Assembly (NCBI GenBank): GCA_022897995.1
Contig: GCA_022897995.1_4763.1
Reading direction: 5' to 3' (one strand)
From: a phage
Length of the DNA stretch: 64,000 bases
Shown here: one piece after another, positions 3,772 to 56,694 of the stretch
Position numbering within the stretch: the first letter of the stretch is position 1
Layout: each line of letters starts with the position of its first letter
Program-made: the position numbers and the translations under genes
Notes under the pieces: generated by a model
The model's input: only the letters and a program-made list of their open reading frames with translations
The model's database searches: none
Told to the model about the DNA's origin: nothing

Positions 3772-3807
3772 TTGACAATAAGAAATGGGAGTAGTAAAAT
3801 ACTCCCA
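3772..3807 (+). promoter_or_regulatory. early promoter with GGGAGTA/TACTCCC stem-loop (PeSL)
   Basis: TTGACA 3772-3777, 17-nt spacer, TAAAAT 3795-3800 inside inverted repeat 3787-3807. Confidence 0.6.
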
Positions 3808-4682: not shown

Positions 4683-4718
4683 TTGACATGATGAAACGGG
4701 AGTAGTAAGATACTCCCA
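4683..4718 (+). promoter_or_regulatory. early promoter with GGGAGTA/TACTCCC stem-loop (PeSL)
   Basis: TTGACA 4683-4688, 17-nt spacer, TAAGAT 4706-4711; inverted repeat 4698-4718. Confidence 0.6.
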
Positions 4719-4742: not shown

Positions 4743-5921
4743 ATGGCTAAATTCTTTGAAGGGCATTACTATGCATTCCGTGAAGGCGGTAAAGATGAGT
4801 TTCTAGACTTTTCTCGCTATTCAATTATTCTGACCGATGCTTCGCGCCGTGGTCATATTCGGGTTGCAGAAATTGTCAAAAACGGTTTTAAAGTATTAGA
4901 AAAAGATGACCACGGTCATGTTATTACTATTGAAGCTGGAGATGTAGTTTATTCCGCTAATGATATTGTGGATTATTGGGCTACTATGATTATGCACAAT
5001 GAGCGCAAATACTTTAAACGTATCTCAAAAGAGGCATACGAAGCGATGAACAAGAAAGAGGATGCAATGCCGACTTACTTTGAAAAAGGTAAATGTTATT
5101 CGTTTACCCCGGAAGGTTTGCAAGAATTTAAGCGATTCTGGGGAGATCATGATCCAGAGCACAAAGAAGCCATGAAACTTGTTGATTTTGTCGAATATGG
5201 CTTTTTAGTTGAAGAAGAATTTCACGGATCGGCTACCATGATCACCGCGAAAGGTGAAACTGTTAAGGCGGATCGTTTTTGTGAACAGTGGAATTGCTTG
5301 TTTGACGGTAGCGAATTTGAATACTTCGCAGAAATCACGAATCATCAATTTCGTTCTATGCAAGCAGATGGTCAGCGATTTAAAGTAGGCGAACGCTACA
5401 AGCCAAATCAGCATAATTTGCCTTATTGGTTTAACACTGAAACCGTATCCAGTCATGTTATTGAAATTGTTCAAAAGCTGGAACAGGGATTTAAGGTAAC
5501 TAAAGTAGATTCTTTCGGAAGTGTTGACGCGGTTGAAATTGATGGTGTAGAATATACACCGAAATCTTTCGGGCTTTGCTGGTATCACTTGATCAGCAAT
5601 GATGAACGTTATAACTTTGTTGAACTGCCATCTGAACCGGAAGAAGCACTAGAAGATCATGATCATCTGTCTGAACTGGTTAAACTGTTTGGCGATCTGC
5701 CGGATGGTGTAGGGGTGGCGGTAATGGGTGAAGGTGCTGTTATCCGAAACCTGAAAGACTTTAAAAAGTTCTTGATCGACATGCTGCCTAAACTCGATGA
5801 GAATCTAGATACAGATATTCAGAATCGCAAAGAAATTGTTAAAGAGACTGAAAAAGAGATCGAAGAGATTCGAGCAATTCGCCAGAAGGTGAAAGCAGTA
5901 AAGAAAAAAGTTAGTGCTTGA
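4743..5921 (+). CDS. paralogue family member with internally duplicated domain
   Basis: Two copies of the GFKV..V..DG / ER(K)Y(F) unit (residues ~40-100 and ~240-290) plus coiled-coil tail. Confidence 0.55.
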   Translation: MAKFFEGHYYAFREGGKDEFLDFSRYSIILTDASRRGHIRVAEIVKNGFKVLEKDDHGHVITIEAGDVVYSANDIVDYWATMIMHNERKYFKRISKEAYEAMNKKEDAMPTYFEKGKCYSFTPEGLQEFKRFWGDHDPEHKEAMKLVDFVEYGFLVEEEFHGSATMITAKGETVKADRFCEQWNCLFDGSEFEYFAEITNHQFRSMQADGQRFKVGERYKPNQHNLPYWFNTETVSSHVIEIVQKLEQGFKVTKVDSFGSVDAVEIDGVEYTPKSFGLCWYHLISNDERYNFVELPSEPEEALEDHDHLSELVKLFGDLPDGVGVAVMGEGAVIRNLKDFKKFLIDMLPKLDENLDTDIQNRKEIVKETEKEIEEIRAIRQKVKAVKKKVSA

Positions 5922-25914: not shown

Positions 25915-27391
25915 GTATCCATCAATCATCCGTCAGGTTAACATTTCGCCGGAAACAATCGCCGGATCTTTTGATGCTGCACCGATGCACGAGTATATCA
26001 ATAAAACTGCACCACGTCCGAGTGATGAGTATTCTTGCTCGCCTAACGGATGGATGTATCGAAAAGATATTCATGGTATCGTACCGATTGAGATTAAAAA
26101 GGTATTCGATCAGCGTAAGCAGTACAAAAACATGATGTTGGCGTGTGATCGCAATGCTGAACTCTGTAAAGCGATTCTACACGATGAAAATCATGTTTAC
26201 GGGGGAACCATTAGCTATAGCGTTGAAGTTCGTCACGACTTCGATGAAGCGTTTAAATCTATGCTTTCGGAATTAAGCAAAGATGCCTTAGAGAAATTGC
26301 TGGAAGAATGTAAAGACGAGTCGATCTTGTGCAATACAAACCAGCTTTCTCGAAAAGTTTTGATCAACTCCCTTTATGGTGCGTTGGGGAATCCTAAATT
26401 CCGTTTTTATGATCTCCGTAACGCTAGTGCGATCACCTTGTTTGGTCAGCTTGCAATTCAGTGGATTGAGCGTAAGATTAACGAATACTTAAACGAGCTT
26501 TGCGGAACAACCGATTTTGCATATGTTCGTTATTGTGATACTGACTCCGTTTATGTGCTGGTTAACAATGTTGTTGATAAGGTTGGCGGGGAAGACCGTT
26601 TCGACGATACCGAAAAACTTGTTGACTTCCTTGATAATTTCGGTAAACATCGAATGGAACCTATTATCGACAAGGGATATCGCGAGTTATGCGAGTACAT
26701 GAACAACTATGAGCACTTGATGTTTATGGACCGCGAGGCAATTGCTGGTCCTCCGTTGAAATCTGCGGGTATCGGTGGATTCTGGACGGGTAAAAAACGC
26801 TATGCTCTTAATGTTTGGGATATGGAAGGAACGCGCTTTGCTGAGCCTAAGCTAAAAATCATGGGCTTGGAAACGCAACGTAGCTCCACCCCTAAAGCAT
26901 GTCAGAAATCACTGAAAGAATGTATTCGCCGTATGTTGCAGGAAGGTGAAGAGTCATTGCAGGAATATTACGGTATTTTTGAGCAAGAGTTTAGAAAACT
27001 TGACTATCTTGAGGTTGCTGCGGTATCATCTGCAAACAACCTACAGAAATACAGCGATTCAAACGGGTATCCGATTAAGGGTTGTCCGTATGCGGTTAAG
27101 AGTGTATTGTGCTATAATCGTAATGCTCGAAAATTCGGACTAGATCCGATTCGTGAGGGCGAGAAGGTTATGATTGTACCGCTTAAAGACCGAAATCCGT
27201 TTGGAGAAATCTGTTTTGGTTGGTTGTCCGGTACTCGTATTCCGCCAGAAATTGAATCAGAGGTGTTAAAGTGGTTGGACTGGCCTTTGTTGTTTAATAA
27301 GACTTTCGTCAAACCACTGGAGAACATTACCACGGCTGCAAAGCTGCAATATGAAAAGGTGGCATCGCTTACGGACCTGTTTGACATTTAA
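25915..27391 (+). CDS. 43: DNA polymerase gp43, exon 2 (palm/fingers/thumb)
   Basis: YPSIIRQVNISPET..., KILINSLYGALGN, YCDTDSVYV (motif C) in frame from 25916. Confidence 0.85.
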
Positions 27392-45808: not shown

Positions 45809-46171
45809 ATGCTAGGTCATTCTAAAATAGAAGATTGCTCATTCAGAGCAATGAAAGATGATTTTTCGGTCCTGTACGCGTCTATCCGAGAGTTGTTTGT
45901 AGATTTTAAGCAATTCAGAGAATACAAAGGCGTTAAGATGCGGGAGTGGGTATTCTGGCCTTTCTATATCATTACTCTGTTTTCTATGGTATTTTGTTTT
46001 GTCGGGATCTCTATCGCTAGTTTTGTCACTTGCGTTTTCCTGATTATCAGGTGTATCATGTTTGCTTTGATTGCTGCCCCGTTTATTGTGTCAATCCTTC
46101 CGTTAAAATGGCTATTGGATTGGGCTGATAAATCTGATAAAGTAAAGAATGTGATTTGTAAGCGTGTATGA
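45809..46171 (+). CDS. hypothetical membrane protein
   Basis: Hydrophobic helices WVFWPFYIITLFSMVFCFVGISIASFV and IMFALIAAPFIVSIL. Confidence 0.4.
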   Translation: MLGHSKIEDCSFRAMKDDFSVLYASIRELFVDFKQFREYKGVKMREWVFWPFYIITLFSMVFCFVGISIASFVTCVFLIIRCIMFALIAAPFIVSILPLKWLLDWADKSDKVKNVICKRV

Positions 46172-46178
46172 GGTGAAG

Positions 46179-47543
46179 ATGGATAAAATTAGTCAAATTG
46201 TAAACACATTTACTTACCGCAGCCTTGAAAGCATTGTACATAATGAAGCTAAGGAATATGCGATCTATTCTGCCGAGGAACGCGGGATTCCTCAATTAGT
46301 GGATGGGCTTAAACCAGTTCAACGCTTTGTTATGGAGTGCGCACTTCAAAAGAGTAAAGGCGACCGTAAGAAATTCCGTAAGATGGCAGATATTGGATCT
46401 GGTGTTGCTGAGTTGGGTTATCACCACGGGGAAACTAATGCCGTAGAAGCCGGATCACTCATGGCGAATACATGGAGCAATAATACTCCACTGCTTGACG
46501 GTCAAGGTAACTTCGGATCGCGTTTAGTCCAGAAAGCAGGTGCGGCACGTTATATCTTTGCTCGTGTTCATGAAAACTTCTTTAAAATCTATAAAGATAT
46601 GAATTGCGCACCTAAACACGAAGATCTGGAACACATCCCGCCAGTGTTCTACTTGCCAGTTGTGCCAATGGTATTGGCTAATGGTATTAGTGGTATTGCT
46701 ACAGGGTATAAAACTGACATTTTACCGCATTCACTGGAAAGCCTTATTGAATGCACAGAGCTAGCACTTGCCGGAAAACTGGATAAAGAACCTAGTGTTC
46801 AATTCCCGAAATTCACGGGTAAAGTTATCCCTCGTGATGACCGAGATGGTGTCATTCTTGAGGGTACATATGAACTAAACGGCAAGACTAAGCTGACAAT
46901 ATCAGAAGTTCCTTATAAGTTCGACCGTGAAGAATATGTAGCGGTACTGGATGCACTGGAAGAAAAAGATCTGATTGTCTCATATAATGACCGTTGCTCT
47001 AAGGATGGATTCAGATTTGAAGTAACACTGAAACGCGATTATTTCAAAAGCGAAGATGAATCCGCTCGACATGAGCAAATCATGAAGGATTTTAAACTAA
47101 CGCAGTTAGTAGCCCAGAATATCGTAGTAGTTAACGAACGTGGTTTAGTTGAAGTATTCGAGAAAGCTAGCGACCTGATCCGTCGATTCGTCGAAATCCG
47201 ATTAGGGTATGTCGATAAACGCATTGAATTGATGCAAGCGGAAACGCTGGAAGCATACAATTATGCAATGGCTAAAGCCGAATTTATCGATCGCGTAATT
47301 AAGGGCGAAATCGAGCTACAGGGCAAGAAAAAGGCCGAGGTAATGCAATCCATCAATGGACATGAAAAACTGCGTCCATACGCCGATAAGCTAGTTTCTA
47401 TGCCATTGTATAGCGTTACTCAAGAAGAGTATGATCGACTGGTCAAAGATGCCGATAAACATCATAGTGAATATGAGTATTGGACAAAGACGACCGCAAT
47501 GAAGGAATATAAGAAAGATCTTAAAGAACTTAAGAAGGGTTGA
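46179..47543 (+). CDS. 52: DNA topoisomerase II medium subunit gp52 (GyrA-like)
   Basis: GLKPVQRFV, LGYHHGE, ANTWSNNTPLLDGQGNFGSR match remembered T4 gp52. Confidence 0.9.
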   Translation: MDKISQIVNTFTYRSLESIVHNEAKEYAIYSAEERGIPQLVDGLKPVQRFVMECALQKSKGDRKKFRKMADIGSGVAELGYHHGETNAVEAGSLMANTWSNNTPLLDGQGNFGSRLVQKAGAARYIFARVHENFFKIYKDMNCAPKHEDLEHIPPVFYLPVVPMVLANGISGIATGYKTDILPHSLESLIECTELALAGKLDKEPSVQFPKFTGKVIPRDDRDGVILEGTYELNGKTKLTISEVPYKFDREEYVAVLDALEEKDLIVSYNDRCSKDGFRFEVTLKRDYFKSEDESARHEQIMKDFKLTQLVAQNIVVVNERGLVEVFEKASDLIRRFVEIRLGYVDKRIELMQAETLEAYNYAMAKAEFIDRVIKGEIELQGKKKAEVMQSINGHEKLRPYADKLVSMPLYSVTQEEYDRLVKDADKHHSEYEYWTKTTAMKEYKKDLKELKKG

Positions 47544-47743
47544 TTATGAAAGAATATCCAGAAGGCGGTTATATTGCATTTCTGTACAACAATAAAAAGA
47601 TTGTGCCAATTGTCGTTGAAACACTGGAAGAATCCAACCGGATCACCAGTGAATCTCTGAGCAAATTAGCAGAGATGACAAACACGCCAGAACACAGAGC
47701 AAAGATCGACAACTTGATGAAAGAATTATCAGAGAGGAAATAA
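47540..47743 (+). CDS. hypothetical protein
   Basis: 67-aa ORF overlapping gp52 stop. Confidence 0.35.
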   Translation: MIMKEYPEGGYIAFLYNNKKIVPIVVETLEESNRITSESLSKLAEMTNTPEHRAKIDNLMKELSERK

Positions 47744-47746
47744 ATT

Positions 47747-48142
47747 ATGACTGAACGACGCATCACTTCAAATGGTTTGGGTACTCATCATGCATGGATG
47801 GTTGACCCAGACAAAAATCCTTATAAACTTTACGACACAACGATTAAACCGTGGAATAATGGCGTATGGAAAACACCGCCCACAACAGCACCTATTATGA
47901 CAGACCCGAAACCGTTTAGCCCGATGGCGGAACCAGTACAGATTAAGCCGTTACCTTACCAGATAACGACGAATAGCATCGCCAACAAACAAGAAAATGA
48001 TATTGATATGATCTACGAGATGATTAAACTTTGGCGTGATGTTTATCTGGGTGTTCTATGCAACACAGATAAAAGTGCACATGCGGCAGCGGTACTTGCA
48101 TCTCATGCGGTAGACGAAGCCAAAAAGAAATTTAGTAAGTAA
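47747..48142 (+). CDS. hypothetical protein
   Basis: 131-aa ORF. Confidence 0.4.
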   Translation: MTERRITSNGLGTHHAWMVDPDKNPYKLYDTTIKPWNNGVWKTPPTTAPIMTDPKPFSPMAEPVQIKPLPYQITTNSIANKQENDIDMIYEMIKLWRDVYLGVLCNTDKSAHAAAVLASHAVDEAKKKFSK

Positions 48143-48152
48143 CTGATTATTA

Positions 48153-48178
48153 AGCCGATCCGTGTGGTCGGCTTTTTT
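48153..48178 (+). terminator. intrinsic terminator
   Basis: AGCCGATCC-GTGTG-GTCGGCT then TTTTTT; near-identical stem to 8383-8404. Confidence 0.7.
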
Positions 48179-48192
48179 ATTTTAAAAAGTTG

Positions 48193-48221
48193 TTGACTTC
48201 CATAATCCATCATTGCATAAT
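48193..48221 (+). promoter_or_regulatory. sigma70-like early promoter
   Basis: TTGACT 48193-48198, 17-nt spacer, CATAAT 48216-48221. Confidence 0.5.
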
Positions 48222-48254
48222 ACACACCCATACCAAACGAAAGGAGAATCAAAG

Positions 48255-48527
48255 ATGAGCAACGAAAACAGCAAAGTGTTAGCAATTGCCGATAAAGTAG
48301 GTTACTGGAAATGTTGGGATGATATGGAGAAATTAGGCGGTCGATATCTCGATAACTTAGAGTTGCATTATTGCCAAGCGCGTAATGCAGAAGTTGCGGG
48401 AGTAGCAATTGAAGATATTCCGTCTAAGGTCTTCGGATTCTCTAAAGATGATACTTTAGAATATGTTTTCAAGGCTGTTATGGATCAAGCATGGGAAGAC
48501 GCAGAGACACGCGCTCTTGATTGGTGA
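48255..48527 (+). CDS. hypothetical protein
   Basis: ATG 48255 after AAGGAGAATCAAAG. Confidence 0.4.
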   Translation: MSNENSKVLAIADKVGYWKCWDDMEKLGGRYLDNLELHYCQARNAEVAGVAIEDIPSKVFGFSKDDTLEYVFKAVMDQAWEDAETRALDW

Positions 48528-48531
48528 TAAT

Positions 48532-48693
48532 ATGAACTGGTATAAAATTTGGAAAAATCAGGTGGAGGCTTATCTAGGGTATAAGCCCACCGACAAAGAA
48601 TTACTTGATGCAATGTACGAAGACGGCTTAAATCCGAAAGTAGCCGCGCAAGAATACGCGGAATGGGTGAAGGTCGAAAATAATTTAAAATAG
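48532..48693 (+). CDS. small hypothetical protein
   Basis: 53-aa ORF (MNWYKIWKNQ...). Confidence 0.3.
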   Translation: MNWYKIWKNQVEAYLGYKPTDKELLDAMYEDGLNPKVAAQEYAEWVKVENNLK

Positions 48694-48696
48694 TTG

Positions 48697-48731
48697 TTGA
48701 CGTAAAGAAATGGGAGTAGTATTATACTCCC
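48697..48731 (+). promoter_or_regulatory. early promoter with GGGAGTA/TACTCCC stem-loop (PeSL)
   Basis: TTGACG 48697-48702, 17-nt spacer, TATTAT 48720-48725. Confidence 0.6.
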
Positions 48732-48758
48732 ACACCGAAACGAAAGAAGGAGAATCAC

Positions 48759-48971
48759 ATGAAATCTATTGAGCAAGTAGTAACAGAATTTATGAGCTAC
48801 GAAGGAAACCGCATCTTTGGACGTTCTCAAGTTCGCGAGATCGTAGAAGAAGTTGCGGGAGAGTTTGCGGAATCTGGTCACGTTATCACGCAAGAACGTA
48901 AAGAAGAAGCAGTAAGCCAGATCATGGCTATGCAGAAAATGCGTATTAATGCACGAGCGGGTAAAAATTAA
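48759..48971 (+). CDS. hypothetical protein
   Basis: 70-aa ORF after AAGGAGAATCACAT. Confidence 0.4.
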   Translation: MKSIEQVVTEFMSYEGNRIFGRSQVREIVEEVAGEFAESGHVITQERKEEAVSQIMAMQKMRINARAGKN

Positions 48972-48978
48972 AAAGTAG

Positions 48979-49014
48979 TTGACACCGGATTATGGGAGTA
49001 GTAAGATACTCCCA
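48979..49014 (+). promoter_or_regulatory. early promoter with GGGAGTA/TACTCCC stem-loop (PeSL)
   Basis: TTGACA 48979-48984, 17-nt spacer, TAAGAT 49002-49007; hairpin identical to 4698-4718. Confidence 0.6.
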
Positions 49015-49041
49015 TCAAGACAAAACATTGAGGAATATATT

Positions 49042-49842
49042 ATGAAAAACATTATCGCTGCTATCGTTCTTTCTGCTACTGCTTTCGGTGCTAATGCTGC
49101 GTCCTTTGATTGCGCTAAAGCTACTACCAAATCAGAGAAGTTTATTTGTGCTAATGAGTCAATCTCCGCACTGGATTCGAAACTTCATGAAGTATATGTT
49201 AAAGCTGTTAAGATTGATCCGTCTCTGAAACAAGAGCAACGCAACTGGAATAAAACTGTTCGTGATACAATGATCAATATCGGGCAGATTCAGCCACTGG
49301 AGGCTGTATATAACGCTCAAATCCAAAACTTGATGAATGTATTACCTAAAGAAGAAACCTCGTCAGAAAGCGATTCAGAGACTTCTGTGAAGGTTGAAGA
49401 AGAACAACCGAAACAGGAAGAAAAAGTGGTGGAAGAACAGAAGAAAGAAGAAAAAATCTCTGGATCTATCACTTACCAGTGCATTGCAAAATTTACATGG
49501 AAAATCATTGATGGTATTGAAACAGACAGCCGCAAAGATCCATTGTATGGAAACTCTACTTATGGCAACAAGGGCGGAAAGCTGAAAATGACCATGACCG
49601 AAGGTGAATTGTCTTCTTTCGTATATGTTGATGAGCGCGAAGTGTTTAAATCAAATCTGACACGCAGCAAACAATATAAAAATATGGTTGTTGGTATGAG
49701 CAAACCGGATGTAGCAGGATACTTCAACGAGTACAAAATGTGGGTAGGGGAAAACGATGAAATCCGCTTTGAAGTCATCGAGAAAGGTCGCATTAGCTAT
49801 GATTATGGTACTCAATATGTTTGCGAATATAAGAAGGGTTAA
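49042..49842 (+). CDS. secreted protein with N-terminal DUF1311/LprI-like domain
   Basis: Signal peptide MKNIIAAIVLSATAFGANA; FDCAKATTKSEKFICANESISALDSKLHEVY matches the DUF1311 two-Cys signature; Glu/Lys-rich linker; unknown C-domain. Confidence 0.55.
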   Translation: MKNIIAAIVLSATAFGANAASFDCAKATTKSEKFICANESISALDSKLHEVYVKAVKIDPSLKQEQRNWNKTVRDTMINIGQIQPLEAVYNAQIQNLMNVLPKEETSSESDSETSVKVEEEQPKQEEKVVEEQKKEEKISGSITYQCIAKFTWKIIDGIETDSRKDPLYGNSTYGNKGGKLKMTMTEGELSSFVYVDEREVFKSNLTRSKQYKNMVVGMSKPDVAGYFNEYKMWVGENDEIRFEVIEKGRISYDYGTQYVCEYKKG

Positions 49843-50124
49843 ATGATGAAATTTAACAACATGAAGTTTAAAAAAGATTGGTGGGATGCTATGAGAGCTA
49901 ACGACCGAATCGGAATTGGAAAGGCAGAAAAGACAGTTGTTATTGTCAAGTATAAAGCGACGCAAGATCTTTTGATTAAGGAACTCATTCGAGCGGGTAA
50001 CTATCAAACACCGGAAGGTCTTATTGACATGATGGTTGATAACATGTATAGTGACGAACCACCAAACATTAAACAATATTACAAGCAGTATTACCGAAAG
50101 TGGCAGAAGTATAACCGAAAATAG
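49843..50124 (+). CDS. hypothetical protein
   Basis: 93-aa ORF. Confidence 0.35.
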   Translation: MMKFNNMKFKKDWWDAMRANDRIGIGKAEKTVVIVKYKATQDLLIKELIRAGNYQTPEGLIDMMVDNMYSDEPPNIKQYYKQYYRKWQKYNRK

Positions 50125-50147
50125 TTTGTTGACGTGAGGATTATATT

Positions 50148-50339
50148 ATGGTAATTTTTAATCGCGATGGTATCATAGTTCGGCAACACCCATTCCTTGA
50201 ATACTATCAGGTTGAACAATGGGGATACGGGGATTGCTCTCGATCATACGGTCAAAGCTGGGGATACCGTACAGTTTTTGAATCAACTAATATTAACAAA
50301 GTACGACAGAAAGTTTTAGAACTTCTTAACGATAAGTGA
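50148..50339 (+). CDS. hypothetical protein
   Basis: 63-aa ORF after TGAGGATTATATT. Confidence 0.3.
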   Translation: MVIFNRDGIIVRQHPFLEYYQVEQWGYGDCSRSYGQSWGYRTVFESTNINKVRQKVLELLNDK

Positions 50340-50351
50340 GGATATTATATC

Positions 50352-50720
50352 ATGGAAATTCAAAACAATTACGAAAAATGTGTTATTATCAATGATTTGC
50401 AACGTCAATTGCATCATTACGAAACCGATTATAAAACAGCAACCAAAACCGGAAAGTTGAAAGTGTGGGAAGTCTGGTATAACCGAAACTATCTGGGAAG
50501 CATCCACAAACTTGATCGCAGTGATGTTTATACAATGCATGTGGGCGCGTGTGGCGAATCGGATGTAGCATCTAATTTCATGGAAGCACTTGCATTCTAT
50601 GTAGAATATCTGGTAGACTATATCGAGTTGGAAGAGGAAGTTGTAGAATTGCTTCCTCCACCGGAAGAAGCACCGGAAGCAACGATCCTGAAAGCATTAA
50701 AGAAAATCTTTGTTAAGTGA
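50352..50720 (+). CDS. hypothetical protein
   Basis: 122-aa ORF. Confidence 0.4.
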   Translation: MEIQNNYEKCVIINDLQRQLHHYETDYKTATKTGKLKVWEVWYNRNYLGSIHKLDRSDVYTMHVGACGESDVASNFMEALAFYVEYLVDYIELEEEVVELLPPPEEAPEATILKALKKIFVK

Positions 50721-50728
50721 GGTGAACT

Positions 50729-51061
50729 ATGAAAAATGTACTGATTGTGTGGGAACTGATTCCAGAAACTACTGAATTATACATGGTACAGGTTGACAAT
50801 AAAGAATTTGAAATTCTGAAACGCGTCAACTGCAAATATATTAACATTGATGACATGACCCCAGAAATGGACTATGTAAACTATGCTCTCATGCAGCCTA
50901 GTTGGATTATGGATGAAACTAAAGCAGACGCCGAATCGCTGGGTGTACCGGAAGAAGTATTAGCGAAATGGCATCAATTCAAAGTTGAGATAAAAGAGGG
51001 TGAACCTTTTATCCCTAGCGGTATGATCGACGCGGTGATCGTAACAGGTTTTCATCTGTAA
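50729..51061 (+). CDS. hypothetical protein
   Basis: 110-aa ORF. Confidence 0.4.
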   Translation: MKNVLIVWELIPETTELYMVQVDNKEFEILKRVNCKYINIDDMTPEMDYVNYALMQPSWIMDETKADAESLGVPEEVLAKWHQFKVEIKEGEPFIPSGMIDAVIVTGFHL

Positions 51062-51074
51062 GGACATTTATACA

Positions 51075-51407
51075 ATGTTTAATTATGACAAATATGAATC
51101 ATGGAAAGCATCCGAACTGAAAGAGGCAGCGCGGTTAATCACACCGCGTCTTTATCCGGTACTGTTTAGCGCCGATAAAGTAACAAGGGAAGTAAACGAG
51201 GCGCTATCGGTTTTAGGTTATCTAATCGATAAAGTAGAGAAAACATCGGTATTCACAAATAGTATAGAATATACCCGTTATCGAGTGTTTTTAGATTCCT
51301 TGCTCGTTGTTATTAAAGCACTAAATGATCATAACTACACCATGAACATGACGAAAATAATCGACGAAGCAAGAATTATGACAGAGAATATTTTCGGAAG
51401 ATTTTGA
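51075..51407 (+). CDS. hypothetical protein, paralogue of 51522-51836
   Basis: C-terminus ...MTKIIDEARIMTENIFGRF resembles ...MNDIIIDARKLAENVYGKF of the next gene. Confidence 0.4.
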   Translation: MFNYDKYESWKASELKEAARLITPRLYPVLFSADKVTREVNEALSVLGYLIDKVEKTSVFTNSIEYTRYRVFLDSLLVVIKALNDHNYTMNMTKIIDEARIMTENIFGRF

Positions 51408-51521
51408 TTATGAAAGATGATGAATCATTGAAAATTGCACTGGTTATGCTATTACAAGGTATAGAATTAGCAAACCACGAAAAAATGTTGATACAACAGC
51501 GTGAAATTATGAGAGGTGATT

Positions 51522-51836
51522 ATGAGTGATATTAAAACCGATGAAGAAATGCAGGATATTGCAAAGGAATTAACCACCATCATGATCCGTCGCGGATCGT
51601 ATAATGCAAAAACCATTATCGATGAAGTCAATACAGCGGTTAAGGCAATCGAGAAAGTAAAGTCAGACGTTGCATTTGAAAGATACACATGGGAAGATAT
51701 TCGCAATCGAAGCCGCTATAATTTCTTTGTTGATTGTATTATGTCAATGACTGAACACTACGGGCATAGCATGAACGACATTATCATCGATGCGCGTAAA
51801 TTAGCAGAGAATGTTTACGGGAAGTTTCCAGAATGA
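51522..51836 (+). CDS. hypothetical protein, paralogue of 51075-51407
   Basis: ATG 51522; shared C-terminal motif with upstream gene. Confidence 0.4.
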   Translation: MSDIKTDEEMQDIAKELTTIMIRRGSYNAKTIIDEVNTAVKAIEKVKSDVAFERYTWEDIRNRSRYNFFVDCIMSMTEHYGHSMNDIIIDARKLAENVYGKFPE

Positions 51837-52081
51837 GATTAGAGCAAGCGATTGTTTATTTTGAGATGGGTTATGATATTGCTCGTGTAGAATGGGAAGA
51901 TGGTGATTTTGTACGATTGATCGATCTTCCAGAAACAGCTATTGCACTGGTCAAAGTAGAAAACGGCATACAACGCAATTACGCGTTTTCTGACGAAGAC
52001 AAACAAGCCGATGACTGGTACGCTACCTGTTTTCATCATACAGCGTCAAAATGTGATTCAGGGGCTTCTATGCGCCAATAA
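51833..52081 (+). CDS. hypothetical protein
   Basis: 82-aa ORF; last + strand gene before convergent terminator. Confidence 0.35.
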   Translation: MRLEQAIVYFEMGYDIARVEWEDGDFVRLIDLPETAIALVKVENGIQRNYAFSDEDKQADDWYATCFHHTASKCDSGASMRQ

Positions 52082-52086
52082 AAAAG

Positions 52087-52113
52087 AAGGGGAAGCCTTT
52101 CGGCTTCCCCTTT
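52087..52113. terminator. bidirectional intrinsic terminator between convergent early block and holin gene
   Basis: GGGGAAGCC-TTTC-GGCTTCCCC flanked by A-run (52081-52086) and T-run (52111-52113). Confidence 0.7.
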
Positions 52114-52116
52114 AAG

Positions 52117-52773
52117 TTATCTAATCCTTCCGAGGATTCTGGCAGATTGATTGCAAAGAGTATCTAAATTCTCAATGTCAATATCCGGTTTATTCTTCCA
52201 TGCAATGGAGATACTACCAGAATAGACATTATCGAGATTGAATATAGGGCAAGAATACATAAACCCTATATCGATACTCTCTAATTTCTTTTCTCTTGAT
52301 GGAATATACTGGAAATCTTTATCGGTAAAATATGATTTACCTAAAAGATGCCTACGATATTCTTCACTCGTTTTATTGATAGGGAATCCGCCTAAATTTT
52401 TTTCATCGATTGTGTGCGGTAGCTTTCCTTCATACGCCACCAAATCAACAAAATAGTTTAGGTTTTTCGGACGAAAACTAAAAACAGCAGAAAAATCGGC
52501 ATCAGCCGATACATGAACTATCTGTAACTGCTCCTGTGCTGCATTATCAAAATTGCGGTCTTTCTCTACCTGGAGAACGTGAGCATAAGTCTCATAACGA
52601 GTCTCTTTATACAATGCAAATAACTCGTTTTTACTATAAACGACAAATGCTAATATAGACAACACGACGGCAGCAAAAACACGAAGTACGAGCAACTCCG
52701 TGCTTTTAGTTGTGAAAATAGCGCGCAGGACATTTGAGATAGCAAAGTCTTTCCCTTTTTCAGAAACTTGCAT
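52117..52773 (-). CDS. t: holin T
   Basis: 218 aa as T4 T; LEQLQIVHVSADADFSAVFSFRPKNLNYFVDLVAYEGKLP and C-terminal ARILGR match remembered T4 holin. Confidence 0.85.
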   Translation of the reverse strand: MQVSEKGKDFAISNVLRAIFTTKSTELLVLRVFAAVVLSILAFVVYSKNELFALYKETRYETYAHVLQVEKDRNFDNAAQEQLQIVHVSADADFSAVFSFRPKNLNYFVDLVAYEGKLPHTIDEKNLGGFPINKTSEEYRRHLLGKSYFTDKDFQYIPSREKKLESIDIGFMYSCPIFNLDNVYSGSISIAWKNKPDIDIENLDTLCNQSARILGRIR

Positions 52774-52806
52774 ATAATGCCCTAAGATAACTATGACAGT
52801 GTACTC

Positions 52807-53046
52807 TTATTTAGGTAGTTGACTATCACTAGATTTATCTTGCTCGTTACTATCTTCTGACTGATCTTTATTAAACTCCTTATAAAGTTCTTCCACAAAA
52901 CGATCATCAATTGGCGTATTGGTATAAGCCGCAAGACGACGAGCGCAATAGAAGAAAATTTTAGTGAGCATCTTTTCACTAATTAACTTTGATAATAGTT
53001 TCATTCCGAAACTAGACAAAGCACCAATAACGATATTATAGACCAT
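52807..53046 (-). CDS. hypothetical protein
   Basis: 79-aa ORF with AAGGAG 8 nt upstream of ATG; between gene 38 and t. Confidence 0.4.
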   Translation of the reverse strand: MVYNIVIGALSSFGMKLLSKLISEKMLTKIFFYCARRLAAYTNTPIDDRFVEELYKEFNKDQSEDSNEQDKSSDSQLPK

Positions 53047-53109: not shown

Positions 53110-53889
53110 CTAAACAGCCGGTCCGTAAATAGCTCCGCGATTTATCCACGTTGGAGCAGACCCTATAACAGCATAACCAGCACCGCCGCCGTTATATTCT
53201 GTGCCGGTACCGTGAGTATTACATCTACCTCCTGCGGAGCCAACTTCGCCGCCATTCCCGCCTGTATATGCACTAAGAGACCCCTCACCGACAGATCCTG
53301 CACCCGGAGCGTAAATGGAGCCAGCGGTTGCACCAGAACTCATATGAGAGGAAGACCCGCCACCACCGAATGGGCGACCACCGCCACCACCAAATACTAG
53401 TCTACCCCTGTTACCGCCGCCACCGCCGCCACCGCCGCCAGCGATAGCACCGCCATTATTAATTCTTAGCCTCCCACCAATATCATTTTGAATACAATGA
53501 CCCCCAGATGAGCCAGGACTATTACTACCGCCATTACCGCCACGACCATACATCGTTACGCCGTGTATATTTAACTGAACATATTCATTTGGTGTATCCC
53601 CGTACATGAAGAATAAAGGAACATCTTTAGAATATGATACTAAATCACCTGTAATATTAAACACTATAGGTGTACTACCTGCCTCAAAGCATCTATCACG
53701 GAACCACTGACCATTGAAGTTATGGTCTGCTCCAAGTGTATGAATAATTTCTCGCGAGCGACCTGCAAATTGACTCATCCAGCAAGGAACACCCAATCTT
53801 AGTTGACCAGCCGCTTGACTCATCCACCGTTGTCCTGTTTCATTTGCGGCTGAACTTCCAATCCAACCGGGAACACCAACTACTGCCAT
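53110..53889 (-). CDS. 38: long tail fibre adhesin gp38 (T2-type, glycine-rich motifs)
   Basis: [71 protein letters not shown] and poly-Gly blocks match remembered T2/T6 gp38. Confidence 0.9.
53355..53450 (-). repeat. GGC/GGT-rich low-complexity repeat encoding the gp38 glycine-rich motifs
   Basis: CCACCGCCACCACC / CCGCCGCCACCGCC runs on + strand. Confidence 0.7.
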
Positions 53890-53925: not shown

Positions 53926-56694
53926 TTAGAATTTAAAATATTTACTAATTTTGCGAGCAATTTTAGTAAAGAAAGGAGTTTTCAATTCTTTAATTTCTTC
54001 ACTCATTTCCTGAATAGCCTTAATTAAAAGAGCATTCACTGCCGAGTTAGAAATTGTCAGAACGTCAGATCCATCAACTTCAACTTTCGATACAGCTTCC
54101 GGCAATTCTTTTTCAAGATCCTGAGCAATAATACCAGCTTCACGTTTAATCACACTACGATCTTTAATAGACTTAACTTTATCGTAAGTATAAACTTTCA
54201 GACGGCATACTTTTTCAAGTGCTCCGTTTTCTAACTCTTCTTTATTAATCTTAAGACGGTCATCAGAACGAATATAAACATCGTTAAAGTTACCATTACC
54301 AGGACAGTAAAAAGTACCATCATGATGGAACTCGAATACAGCTTGAGGATGACCAGCCGCTGGCGATGCCTCCGCAGATCCAACACGAATAATTGCTTGT
54401 CCCCAATTGTTAGGAACACGACGCATACCAAAATCGACGGCAGTTGTATATCCTTGATTGGTGATTAAACTTCTGCCTTTAATAATTGGGTAATAACTGT
54501 CTGGTCCAACATAGCCGTGGTCAACAAATATCGGCGCTTCTAATCCCCATTGGTCGTTCCAACTTCCAGATTGGCTAGCAGTCCAACGTTCACCATGAAC
54601 ATAGAATCGAACGTTATTGACATGAGTCATTTCGATGCCTTTTGGACTTAGTGCGATATCCCCCGCGTTTGTAATGTATATGGCAGCATTAGTAGCATAA
54701 CTATAGAACGCTAATCCATTATCAGCACCACCTTTACCGATATACCAGTTGTTATTATCAGCACAAGTACCCAACAAATATACCGACGAATCTCCCGTTT
54801 CAGCATTAATGGTAATAGCGTCAGAACCACGATTAACTTTCAGTTTCCCAAAGAATGTATTTTGAATGGTGTTATCACCTTTACGCTCAAATTCGGCTAA
54901 AAATCCTTTTGAGTCACGAAGACTTAAAACGTTATTTCGACCTATATTGCTTGCCCCCCAATGGACGATTTCCATATAGTCCATAGATTGACGAGAACCA
55001 GCTTTAAAGAAAAGATTGTCCTCAAGACGAGTGCTGCCATCAATTCCAAGATGCAAACAACGAGCGGTTTCAGTACCACCTAAATATAATCCACCGTCCG
55101 CAAAATTATAGCTGAATGGTCTGCGATTATTCCAACTACCAAAAGAATCTTTTAAATTGGTAGTAAGAATATGGAAATTAGAACCATCATTGCGTAACAT
55201 CAAACCATAGTTACCGCCTTTGACAGCCAAACGAGCATTTTCAGACAATGCAACTTCGCCATTCATTACAATTTTCTGGCCTTTACCACCAGAAATCTGT
55301 AATTCACCGTTTTCGAGCAAGTTTATCGAGTTTTGACCGTTATCGTTCCACCAAATAAAATCTTTGGTCTGACCATCACCGAAACCAAACCAGCCATTAC
55401 GAACATCTTGTCCAGTGCGATAATCCATAAAATTAAAATGGCTTGCTTCGTTTGGTCCTCGACGAATGTCAATACCGGCATTACCAACACCACCATCCAA
55501 CGTTAATCTCTTGACATGTAACCCGGTTACAGCCGAAAGCAATAATTCCTGACTTGTATCTTCGTATCCAGTAGCAAGACGATATGAGTTAGCATCAACT
55601 GTCTCATGCCAGATAGTGGCAGGAGCACAACTACGGAAGCGACGCAACATCTTTTTAGCATTTGTCGGTTGTTCGTTCAAATGCTCAATGTCATATTGGC
55701 CTTGAGAATTAGCACCAAAATTTAATGTCCCGTGGTTGCGATGAGTACTAAATGAAGTGATTGTATAAGCATCGAACTTTGTTTCAGCTTCCGGTAATTG
55801 ACCTCCTATAAATTGTGGTTTATCATATAAAGTCAGGTTAACATCAGGGCTAGTCTGGTATTCAGCCAACACAAATCCAGTATGACCGGAATAGCTACCG
55901 TATATATCATAAGAGTCACCACCAGTAGGAATAGCACAAAACTTCTGGTCTATATACCAGATGGTCATATAAGCGTTAAACACAACACCAACCGGATTTC
56001 CATTCCCGCTACGCAGAACCAATTCAATAATATTAGCTTGCCCGGTCTGTCCTACATTATAACCATTACCACCAACCAATCTAATTTTAGCACTACGCCC
56101 ATATTGTTGTGGTAGATATACTGTCGCGATTTTAAACCAACCGAACTCAATTCCAAAATCAAGTGTCTTTTGGAACATCCGATCTACTTCTTGTTTGCTG
56201 TACACATTCAATTCCGACGGACTAGGCTTATCACCTTCGTGATACATGCGATATGAATATGCCAATACACCATCAGCGTTATAACCATAGGTTTTTACAG
56301 TAGGAACAACGTTAGAACCATAAGTAAAATCCAACCCACGAGCATGATTTATACCGCTAGGATGGGGAATATGCAAAGCCAATGCTAGATGACCATCCAT
56401 ATCATTAGTACGAAATGCCCCAAATTTATCAAGATTTCGTGAGGTCGGGTCATCGAAATAGTTTGCGGTATTACTCCACACAAGGTCATCCACAACCACG
56501 CGGCCTCTTACATCAAAGCCTTTGTCATAAACAGGAGGGCAGCTTAAATTAACAATTTGCCCATCATCATTTTTTGTAAGCAGATATTGGTCTGCTAAGT
56601 TAATTGCCAACTCTCCCGGATTCATCGTACCAGCATCCGGTTTACGTCCGGCTGCGCTAGTGCGTTTAAACTGGATTCTGTTTAAATCTGCCAT
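53926..56694 (-). CDS. 37: long tail fibre distal subunit gp37 with C-terminal intramolecular chaperone-like domain
   Basis: N-terminus MADLNRIQFKRTSAAGRKPDAGTMNPGELAINL as T4 gp37; C-terminus ...EAGIIAQDLEKELPEAVSKVEVDGSDVLTISNSAVNALLIKAIQEMSEEIKELK resembles endosialidase-type auto-chaperone. Confidence 0.85.
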   Translation of the reverse strand: MADLNRIQFKRTSAAGRKPDAGTMNPGELAINLADQYLLTKNDDGQIVNLSCPPVYDKGFDVRGRVVVDDLVWSNTANYFDDPTSRNLDKFGAFRTNDMDGHLALALHIPHPSGINHARGLDFTYGSNVVPTVKTYGYNADGVLAYSYRMYHEGDKPSPSELNVYSKQEVDRMFQKTLDFGIEFGWFKIATVYLPQQYGRSAKIRLVGGNGYNVGQTGQANIIELVLRSGNGNPVGVVFNAYMTIWYIDQKFCAIPTGGDSYDIYGSYSGHTGFVLAEYQTSPDVNLTLYDKPQFIGGQLPEAETKFDAYTITSFSTHRNHGTLNFGANSQGQYDIEHLNEQPTNAKKMLRRFRSCAPATIWHETVDANSYRLATGYEDTSQELLLSAVTGLHVKRLTLDGGVGNAGIDIRRGPNEASHFNFMDYRTGQDVRNGWFGFGDGQTKDFIWWNDNGQNSINLLENGELQISGGKGQKIVMNGEVALSENARLAVKGGNYGLMLRNDGSNFHILTTNLKDSFGSWNNRRPFSYNFADGGLYLGGTETARCLHLGIDGSTRLEDNLFFKAGSRQSMDYMEIVHWGASNIGRNNVLSLRDSKGFLAEFERKGDNTIQNTFFGKLKVNRGSDAITINAETGDSSVYLLGTCADNNNWYIGKGGADNGLAFYSYATNAAIYITNAGDIALSPKGIEMTHVNNVRFYVHGERWTASQSGSWNDQWGLEAPIFVDHGYVGPDSYYPIIKGRSLITNQGYTTAVDFGMRRVPNNWGQAIIRVGSAEASPAAGHPQAVFEFHHDGTFYCPGNGNFNDVYIRSDDRLKINKEELENGALEKVCRLKVYTYDKVKSIKDRSVIKREAGIIAQDLEKELPEAVSKVEVDGSDVLTISNSAVNALLIKAIQEMSEEIKELKTPFFTKIARKISKYFKF

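Follow-up and report, generated by a model that had tools for sequence, protein, structure and literature searches.

The closest described relatives of the locus analysed here are the hyperplastic regions (HPRs) of the phages RB49 and Phi1 (PMC2839356; Comeau et al., 2014, PMC4122927). These two phages carry about 50 'promoter-early stem-loop' (PeSL) elements per genome, which act as strong promoters and terminators and were proposed to mediate modular shuffling (Arbiol et al., 2010, PMC2839356). In T4, the interval between gene 52 and the holin gene t holds motA.1, motA, arn.4-arn.1, arn, asiA.1 and asiA. For RB49, a passage of Nolan et al. (2006, PMC1524935), citing Desplats et al. (2002), reports unsuccessful attempts to identify a motA orthologue or a consensus for middle promoters, and AsiA orthologues are listed only for RB69, 44RR, Aeh1 and KVP40 (Nolan et al., 2006, PMC1524935). 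Here we analysed the gene 52 - t interval (47540 to 52081) of a 64,000-nucleotide stretch of phage DNA (GenBank assembly GCA_022897995.1, contig GCA_022897995.1_4763.1), which is called the window below. A preliminary description, made from the sequence alone, had presented it as an accessory island that is made up of small early genes and lacks a MotA or AsiA counterpart. The feature is real and was correctly described; the interpretation given to it is supported in part, and what it chiefly reports was already known for the genus Krischvirus: the interval is a PeSL-bearing HPR.

Positions 46000-53000 matched 63 phage records at 88-97% identity in a megablast search, 56 of them with at least 80% query coverage. 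All of them belong to RB49-like coliphages of the T4 type, in the genus Krischvirus (RB49, Phi1, JSE, GEC-3S, PHB13, kvi and others), and no identical record was found among the 63. The nearest record for the protein of the last open reading frame (ORF) in the island, o14, is kvi, with 100% amino acid identity, although the fibre region is only 95% identical to that phage. The flanks named in the preliminary description, gene 52 and the holin gene, were confirmed by Pfam matches and by a tblastn match to T4 gp52 (50% identity, E 3e-146). Gene 52 is annotated at the matching position in RB49, Phi1 and JSE, and the gene order is the same in the annotated relatives. The T4 annotation likewise agrees with the earlier statement that the counterpart interval there carries motA, arn and asiA. 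We consider it very probable that the interval is the gene 52 - t HPR of an RB49/Phi1/JSE-type Krischvirus, a judgement that covers the whole explanation developed below as one. Between the flanks lie 14 co-directional plus-strand ORFs of 41-266 residues, not 13 of 47-266 as first counted; the 41-residue o12 had been missed. The features, from left to right, are as follows.

46179..47543, plus strand: gene 52 (topoisomerase II medium subunit), left boundary; Pfam DNA_topoisoIV, E 5e-69.
47546..47743, plus strand: o1, 65 residues, starting close after the gp52 stop; phrog_15105, E 1e-45; 71-98% identity in six relatives.
47747..48142, plus strand: o2, 131 residues, Pro-rich N-terminal half; phrog_15644, E 2e-92; 90-99% identity in relatives.
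48152..48221, plus strand: PeSL-1; hairpin 48152-48174, T-run to 48181, promoter TTGACT-17-CATAAT at 48193-48221.
48255..48527, plus strand: o3, 90 residues; phrog_7287, E 9e-39; 98-99% identity in relatives.
48532..48693, plus strand: o4, 53 residues; phrog_8655, E 9e-27; 91-100% identity in relatives.
48683..48732, plus strand: PeSL-2; promoter TTGACG-17-TATTAT at 48697-48725, stem-loop 48711-48732 across the -10 box.
48759..48971, plus strand: o5, 70 residues; phrog_14966, E 1e-49; 87-100% identity in relatives.
48965..49015, plus strand: PeSL-3; promoter TTGACA-17-TAAGAT at 48979-49007, stem-loop 48992-49015 across the -10 box.
49042..49842, plus strand: o6, 266 residues, predicted secreted; Pfam LprI/DUF1311.
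49843..50124, plus strand: o7, 93 residues, co-varying with the o6 C-domain; phrog_15915, E 3e-52.
50024..50052, plus strand: consensus sigma70 promoter in the 3' part of o7, TTGACA-17-TATAGT, 11 of 12 positions.
50113..50134, plus strand: AT-rich/-35 PeSL-like remnant AACCGAAAATAGTTTGTTGACG, directly 5' of the o8 ribosome-binding site.
50148..50339, plus strand: o8, 63 residues; phrog_6957, E 2e-42; 95-98% identity in relatives.
50352..50720, plus strand: o9, 122 residues, T4 Arn.4 homologue; phrog_1594, E 9e-26.
50729..51061, plus strand: o10, 110 residues; phrog_4658, E 4e-40; 99-100% identity in relatives.
51075..51407, plus strand: o11, 110 residues, first paralogue; phrog_9457, E 5e-42.
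51404..51529, plus strand: o12, 41 residues, overlapping o11 by 4 nt and o13 by 14 nt; phrog_17009, E 7e-29; annotated in RB49 (p256.1), Phi1, JSE and GEC-3S.
51516..51836, plus strand: o13, 106 residues, second paralogue; phrog_9457, E 1e-35.
51833..52081, plus strand: o14, 82 residues, short DUF2829/Tad2-like; Pfam PF11195.
52086..52113, both strands: bidirectional intrinsic terminator common to the island and the holin gene, a 12-bp GC-rich hairpin.
52117..52773, minus strand: holin gene t (T-type), right boundary; Pfam Phage_holin_T, E 8e-61.

The island was compared with six relatives, RB49, Phi1, JSE, GEC-3S, PHB13 and SSG23, which with the window gives seven genomes. In the island alignment, every insertion or deletion (indel) relative to these phages maps to one of the three PeSLs. 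At 48218-48258, SSG23 carries an additional 232 bp. At 48675-48696, GEC-3S is longer by 502 bp, PHB13 by 356 and SSG23 by 191 and 246. At 48961-48981, RB49 and JSE carry an extra 208 bp, Phi1 491 and SSG23 196. At most junctions, adjacent alignment blocks overlap by 15-66 nt, which means that the additional ORFs lie between repeats of PeSL sequence. The window has the shortest island among the seven genomes; it lacks ORF263 of RB49 and Phi1, ORF263.1 of Phi1 and the extra ORFs of GEC-3S, PHB13 and SSG23. The location, the repeated cassettes and the differences in gene content that map to cassettes are thus all those of a Krischvirus HPR. The match to the HPRs of RB49 and Phi1 extends to genus and locus (ORFs 255-268 in both phages), to the sigma70 promoters that follow an AT-rich tract and carry a stem-loop over or before the -10 box, and to the gain or loss of single orphan ORFs exactly at cassettes.

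The three intergenic cassettes are the published PeSL elements. All three promoters have a common AT-rich tract and GTTGTTGAC upstream, and the window contains 6 copies of the AT-rich/TTGAC cassette motif, where 1.5 would be expected. The hairpins have predicted energies of -12.5 kcal/mol (z -3.9) in PeSL-1, -12.6 kcal/mol (z -4.4) in PeSL-2 and -13.6 kcal/mol (z -3.9) in PeSL-3. A terminator and a promoter are annotated at the PeSL-1 position in GEC-3S. In PeSL-2 and PeSL-3 the stem-loop over the -10 box reads GGGAGTAGTA...TACTCCC, so that GGGAGTAGTA forms one arm of it. Promoter and terminator activity, as well as mini-circles, were found experimentally for other PeSLs of Phi1 and RB49 (PMC2839356), and the three island elements are predicted to have the same two activities. 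The bidirectional terminator at the right end has -22.6 and -21.9 kcal/mol on the two strands and T-runs on both sides, and is annotated on both strands in GEC-3S.

Four promoter cassettes had been proposed in the preliminary description. Three stand as intergenic promoter/stem-loop cassettes, while the fourth is a lone promoter inside o7. Both of its hexamers are kept in all six relatives, including RB49, in which o7 is 47% identical. The companion claim, that consensus sigma70 promoters occur throughout the early region, held: the early strand (1-52100) contains 41 sigma70-type sites (TTGACN, 16-18 nt, TANNNT), about 10-fold more than the 4.3 +/- 2.2 found in dinucleotide shuffles. The remnant upstream of o8 has no usable -10 before the start codon, and the TTGACG at 50129 was rejected as an o8 promoter since its -10 would fall inside o8. 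In Phi1, a 27-nt unit, AGTACAACCGAAAATAAGTTGTTGACA, comprising the AT-rich tract and the -35 box, stands in three tandem copies just before the o8 homologue; it is single-copy in the window (50113-50134) and in the other relatives. The GGGAGTAGTA spacer motif is common to four sigma70-type promoters of the window (3772-3800, 4683-4711, 48697-48725 and 48979-49007). Promoters with this motif mark one PeSL subclass, which is present in at least two separate HPRs of the window.

Besides gain and loss of ORFs, the island shows allelic replacement. Three coding segments, the o6 C-domain, o7 and o13, are replaced within a backbone that is 95-100% identical. The o7 protein is 47% identical in RB49 and 74% in JSE. 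The o13 protein is dimorphic, with 97% identity to SSG23 and ~49% to the allele carried by RB49, Phi1, GEC-3S, PHB13 and JSE. In these phages its neighbours o11 and o14 retain 95-99% identity. The window pairs an o6 C-domain of the Phi1/GEC-3S type with an o13 allele of the SSG23 type. The proteins o11 and o13 are diverged tandem paralogues, as the preliminary description had it (27.6% identity over 98 residues, blastp E 2e-6; both phrog_9457). Their family, in which no Pfam domain was found, occurs only on Krischvirus-like contigs and has many alleles.

The anatomy, the homologies and the indels at PeSLs are direct observations, and they suggest how the island could work. The first two genes, o1 and o2, would be transcribed by read-through from gene 52, stopping at the hairpin at 48152. 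Unmodified host sigma70 polymerase would re-initiate at the three PeSLs and at the promoter within o7, and the tightly packed, partly overlapping genes o3-o14 would form early transcripts ending at the terminator common with the holin gene. The PeSL hairpins may limit read-through. Recombination between repeated PeSLs would lead to gain or loss of single ORFs, and allelic replacement would change the o6 C-domain together with o7, and o13. The cargo would be accessory genes, namely o9, o14, o6, the o11/o13 pair and further orphan ORFs. An accessory island of small early genes, as originally described, agrees with the comparison of the interval across the six relatives, which is variable at the PeSLs. 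The timing is a prediction here, as are all biochemical functions, and it counts against this scheme that early expression and promoter use are drawn from the sequence and from the RB49 and Phi1 literature.

What the cargo does is a separate question. All 14 ORFs match a PHROG family (E 1e-18 to 1e-156), each labelled 'unknown function'. For 12 of them, no functionally characterised family was matched in Pfam or PHROG, nor in NCBIfam, which was searched with ten ORFs and gave no match. The preliminary description had noted that such islands are where host-takeover and anti-defence genes cluster. In its strongest form this would make the locus mainly an anti-defence island, in which several ORFs besides o14 counter host immunity or competing phages and the alleles record an arms race. 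Several observations point that way. Pfam places o14 in the Tad2-like family, whose members sequester immune signals; in T4, the counterpart interval includes the anti-McrBC gene arn; alleles of 36-50% identity take the place of the o6 C-domain, o7 and o13 in a 95%-identical backbone; and the o6 C-domain falls into 8 clusters. However, a match to a characterised anti-defence family is lacking for 13 of the 14 ORFs, hypervariability fits superinfection exclusion or other interactions with the host envelope as well, and the ligand pocket of o14 is only partly conserved. We therefore regard a mainly anti-defence island as possible but doubtful. The earlier suggestion keeps limited support from o14, with its marginal Pfam score, and is weakened by the change of half of the ligand-binding motif in that protein. 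We prefer to describe the island as an HPR with mixed accessory cargo, and we discuss o14 and o6 in turn.

The o14 protein matches PF11195 (Tad2-like, DUF2829) with 27.1 bits against a gathering cutoff of 25, and the cutoff is likewise exceeded by relatives of 57% and 48% identity, with 26.1 and 25.5 bits. Of 61 phage records that match o14, 59 carry it at 95% identity or more, and its distant relatives are likewise convergent with a T-holin gene. The AlphaFold2 model of the monomer (pLDDT 75) has the order a1-b1-b2-b3-b4-a-b5. In the published description, the Tad2 core has a helix at the N-terminus and a five-stranded antiparallel sheet, with another helix before the last strand. The predicted order fits this core; Tad2 is an interlocked tetramer, and o14 was modelled as a monomer only. 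In a MAFFT alignment, o14 aligns with the Tad2 proteins of SPO1 (gp34.65), Mod and Hgm through two signature regions. Invariant residues are A6, G13, R18, W21, D56, D61 and W62, and o14 also carries the S-x-x-D...A-x-D-W motif. The likeness to the characterised Tad2 sponges (SPO1 gp34.65, HgmTad2 and ModTad2; PDB 8SME, 8KBI and 9EIB) thus comprises PF11195, the predicted core and the shared invariant residues. Unlike them, o14 lacks the 20-40-residue insertion between b2 and b3 and has a C-terminal tail of ~17 residues.

The seven gcADPR-contact residues of HgmTad2 that were mapped are W21, N22, G23, W87, S90, T92 and D93. Three of them, W21, S90 (S53 in o14) and D93 (D56), are kept, and W87 is replaced by Y50. 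The remaining three are changed (N22 to E, G23 to D and T92 to E), so that o14 has W-E-D for W-N-G and E for T at ligand-contacting positions. These changes weigh against the link to Tad2, and they include two of the five contacts that matter by mutagenesis. Further points on the same side are that the Pfam score is just 2 bits above the cutoff, that the o14-family profile found no Tad2 among PDB sequences, that hhalign of the o14 family against SPO1 Tad2 gave 1.6% probability over the first 24 columns only, and that a Foldseek search of the monomer model against the PDB returned no Tad2 chain. The protein therefore differs from the solved Tad2 structures in having no sequence or Foldseek match to them. 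A word-indexed search found 2 homologous proteins, and a full HMMER search against 1.84 billion representatives gave 8, among them 3 eukaryotic repeat proteins that were spurious matches. Since homologues are few, the o14 subfamily is small, and the Tad2 link depends on the Pfam profile and the motif alignment.

By sequence, o14 would be a divergent member of the DUF2829 superfamily, for which a sponge role is plausible; it is not a proven anti-Thoeris protein. Tad2-like family members sequester gcADPR, His-ADPR, cCMP/cUMP, N7-cADPR or cGG. The most likely role, which is speculative, is that of a small-molecule sponge against nucleotide-signalling defence. A more specific idea combines o14, as a minimal, insertion-less sponge for an E. 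coli signal other than 1''-3' gcADPR, with o6 as a secreted decoy or inhibitor in one counter-defence and competition locus. The changed pocket of o14 would fit that other signal, the variable barrel of o6 would follow a fast-evolving target in the periplasm or on a phage, and the locus would stand where T4 has its transcription-takeover genes. We offer it tentatively and would sooner bet against it.

The o6 protein matches Pfam LprI/DUF1311 (PF07007) with E 5e-5 and 24 bits against a cutoff of 22. Its N-terminus is signal-peptide-like, with MKNIIAAIVLSATAFGANA followed by the cleavage site and AS, and with an A-N-A cleavage motif. The earlier claim of a secreted DUF1311-like protein is therefore well founded, secretion being a prediction. 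After the signal peptide, the layout comprises a helical DUF1311/LprI domain (~20-103), an acidic disordered linker (104-138) and an 8-stranded beta-barrel (139-266) in the AlphaFold2 model (pLDDT 72 overall, ~87 in the barrel). Among 21 homologues, mean pairwise identity is 96.8% in the N-domain and 32.5% in the C-domain. The C-domain splits into 8 clusters, and Cys24/Cys36 and Cys147/Cys261 are kept. It is 36-38% identical to that of RB49 and SSG23 and undetectable in JSE, and the island alignment shows its exchange as an equal-length, non-homologous replacement. A 264-residue homologue is found in E. coli chromosomes (CP035865.1, 6001-6795) by hicA-hicB, yncJ and ydcP, near an insertion sequence (IS) element. 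It has almost the same N-domain as the phage protein and a C-domain of another type, which suggests a recent phage-host exchange.

We think it most likely, if speculative, that o6 is a periplasmic binder of a fast-evolving partner. Against any sharper assignment, the barrel resembles many unrelated 8-stranded barrels to a similar degree, and the fold alone therefore gives no function. Searches with o6, as with o14, against PDB sequences (single-sequence and profile) gave nothing relevant. Co-variation of the C-domain with the phage's own adhesin was considered and rejected, because the same C-domain type occurs with gp38-type fibres in the window and with RB49-type fibres in GEC-3S, PHB13 and Phi1. 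In a narrower version of the binder reading, o6 would be a periplasmic lysozyme inhibitor or a superinfection-exclusion factor like T4 Spackle, the barrel binding the tail lysozyme or tip proteins of competitors. This is unlikely: PliC ranks 25th and PhiA 38th among generic 8-stranded barrels, and the type of C-domain is not linked to the adhesin of the phage itself. Neither the C-domain nor six variant homologues matched MliC/PliC or another family in Pfam even at E <= 10. Compared with DUF1311/LprI and PliC/MliC proteins, o6 has a barrel without a Pfam family that is hypervariable behind a near-invariant N-domain, and no lysozyme-inhibitor motif was identified in it.

The island can also be set against its T4 counterpart. 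The flanks and orientation are the same, with small early genes running toward a convergent holin gene, and one gene is common to both. This gene is o9, whose product is homologous to T4 Arn.4 (Pfam Phage_T4_Y16F family, the '12.8 kDa protein in the asiA-motA region'), judged by sequence similarity (tblastn E 6e-7 against the T4 locus, pairwise E 3e-9 against a 110-codon T4 ORF). The RB49 annotation already notes the Arn.4 similarity of the o9 counterpart, and the syntenic gene in a distant relative carries PF26821 (Phage_T4_Y16F). The preliminary description had seen no ORF resembling the T4 interval genes, which is right for MotA, Arn and AsiA and wrong for o9, the only island ORF in common with that interval. 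In T4 (NC_000866), arn.4 is annotated with 68 residues, and the similarity to o9 (W-D/E-I/V-W-Y...Y-L-G-T/S-I) begins upstream of the RefSeq start. The 110-codon stop-to-stop ORF lies at 5128-5460 on the minus strand of the T4 stretch examined; the RefSeq start may thus have been placed too far downstream.

In contrast to T4, the window has no MotA, AsiA or Arn homologue in this interval and no Mot-box promoters, and the gene beside t is the Tad2-like ORF, not asiA. When the proteins of the T4 interval were searched against the whole window with tblastn, only gp52 matched; the best E values were 1.2 for AsiA and 3.7 for MotA. Pfam AsiA, MotA_activ and MotCF were not found in any island ORF at E <= 0.1. 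Custom profile hidden Markov models (HMMs) were built from six AsiA orthologues (T4, JS98 and Klebsiella, Acinetobacter, Aeromonas and Pseudomonas phages) and five MotA orthologues, and were run on all six-frame ORFs of at least 30 residues in the complete RB49 genome (OZ035808) and the window. The best MotA match in this space had E 0.5. The best AsiA match (E 0.01, 13.7 bits) fell on an ORF outside the island, at 25985-27391 on the plus strand, and was judged spurious since that ORF has 468 residues. With hhalign, the island ORFs and the o6, o11/o13 and o14 family alignments reached at most 2.7% probability against the MotA and AsiA profiles (AsiA at most 1.6%), compared with 97.6% and 99.7% in leave-one-out controls for an AsiA 29% identical to T4 and for MotA, respectively. 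Mot-box sites (TGCTTnA, 11-13 nt, TAnnnT) on the early strand are at chance level, with 1 strict site against 1.1 expected and 7 loose sites against 10.6 expected.

Profile homology thus indicates that the absence of MotA and AsiA is real and genome-wide. It is a trait of the whole Krischvirus lineage and not of the island, and as such it has already been published. The preliminary description was correct in finding neither a MotA/AsiA counterpart nor middle-promoter MotA boxes, and the sensitive search for the pair that had been named beforehand as the refuting test found none. The whole lineage would pass from early to late expression without a MotA/AsiA-dependent middle class, and nothing in the island would have replaced the two proteins. 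A rival reading is that the 14 ORFs conceal a MotA/AsiA pair too diverged to be recognised by eye, or a functional analogue able to redirect sigma70. The asiA gene (90-91 residues) of T4, JS98 and an Acinetobacter phage is convergent with the holin gene and abuts it. In the window, the unrelated 82-residue o14 occupies exactly this slot, several small ORFs have no assigned function, and structure models cover just 2 of the 14 ORFs. A non-homologous functional analogue of AsiA would also escape sequence methods, which tells against our conclusion. But the controlled profile HMM, hhalign and Pfam searches were negative, Mot boxes are at chance level, and earlier published searches in RB49 were negative too (PMC1524935). 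The o14 model, moreover, is alpha+beta and Tad2-like. AsiA is all-helical. We hold such a hidden pair or analogue to be very improbable.

Each of the 14 ORFs has an annotated counterpart in RB49, Phi1, JSE, GEC-3S, PHB13 or SSG23. That the small ORFs are chance reading frames in a non-coding spacer can be dismissed with near certainty: most are short (41-131 residues) and an ORF list alone is no proof of genes, but all 14 are intact in six relatives, mostly at 90-100% amino acid identity, and each can be assigned a PHROG family of its own. They are closely spaced, carry Shine-Dalgarno sequences and have stop codons that overlap or abut the next start codon, and a metagenomic relative with an o14 of just 48% identity has them in the same order.

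A T4-type phage that has orphan early genes and lacks MotA and AsiA restates what is known of RB49-type phages and raises no new question. The literature matches listed contained no relevant paper on Krischvirus and anti-defence or on Krischvirus or RB49 and Thoeris or Tad2. Also not found among them were a Tad2-like assignment of the holin-adjacent gene or its altered pocket, the invariant N-domain and hypervariable barrel of o6, its chromosomal homologue, and the dimorphism of o13. A genus-wide Tad2-like gene with an altered pocket could widen the range of immune signals sponged by coliphages. The o6 protein, which also occurs in E. coli chromosomes, joins a conserved handle to one of at least eight interchangeable barrels and looks like an arms-race molecule. 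The island is a clean natural case of PeSL-mediated gene gain and loss, and it gives an experimental shortlist in a phage group used in therapy cocktails.

Beyond the holin gene, the minus strand carries a neighbouring adhesin module. A 922-residue gp37 is encoded at 53926-56694, and downstream of it, at 53110-53889, lies a T2/T6-type gp38 adhesin of 259 residues with Gly-rich motifs (phrog_2056, E 5e-106). In RB49, Phi1, JSE, GEC-3S and PHB13, gp37 instead comes directly after a 79-residue ORF. The gp38 module is present only in a subset of the genus (kvi, MIZ4/5, FL20, LF73P4, KMB43, FL04, FL15 and phiS), and it also matches several hundred Tequatrovirus-type records.

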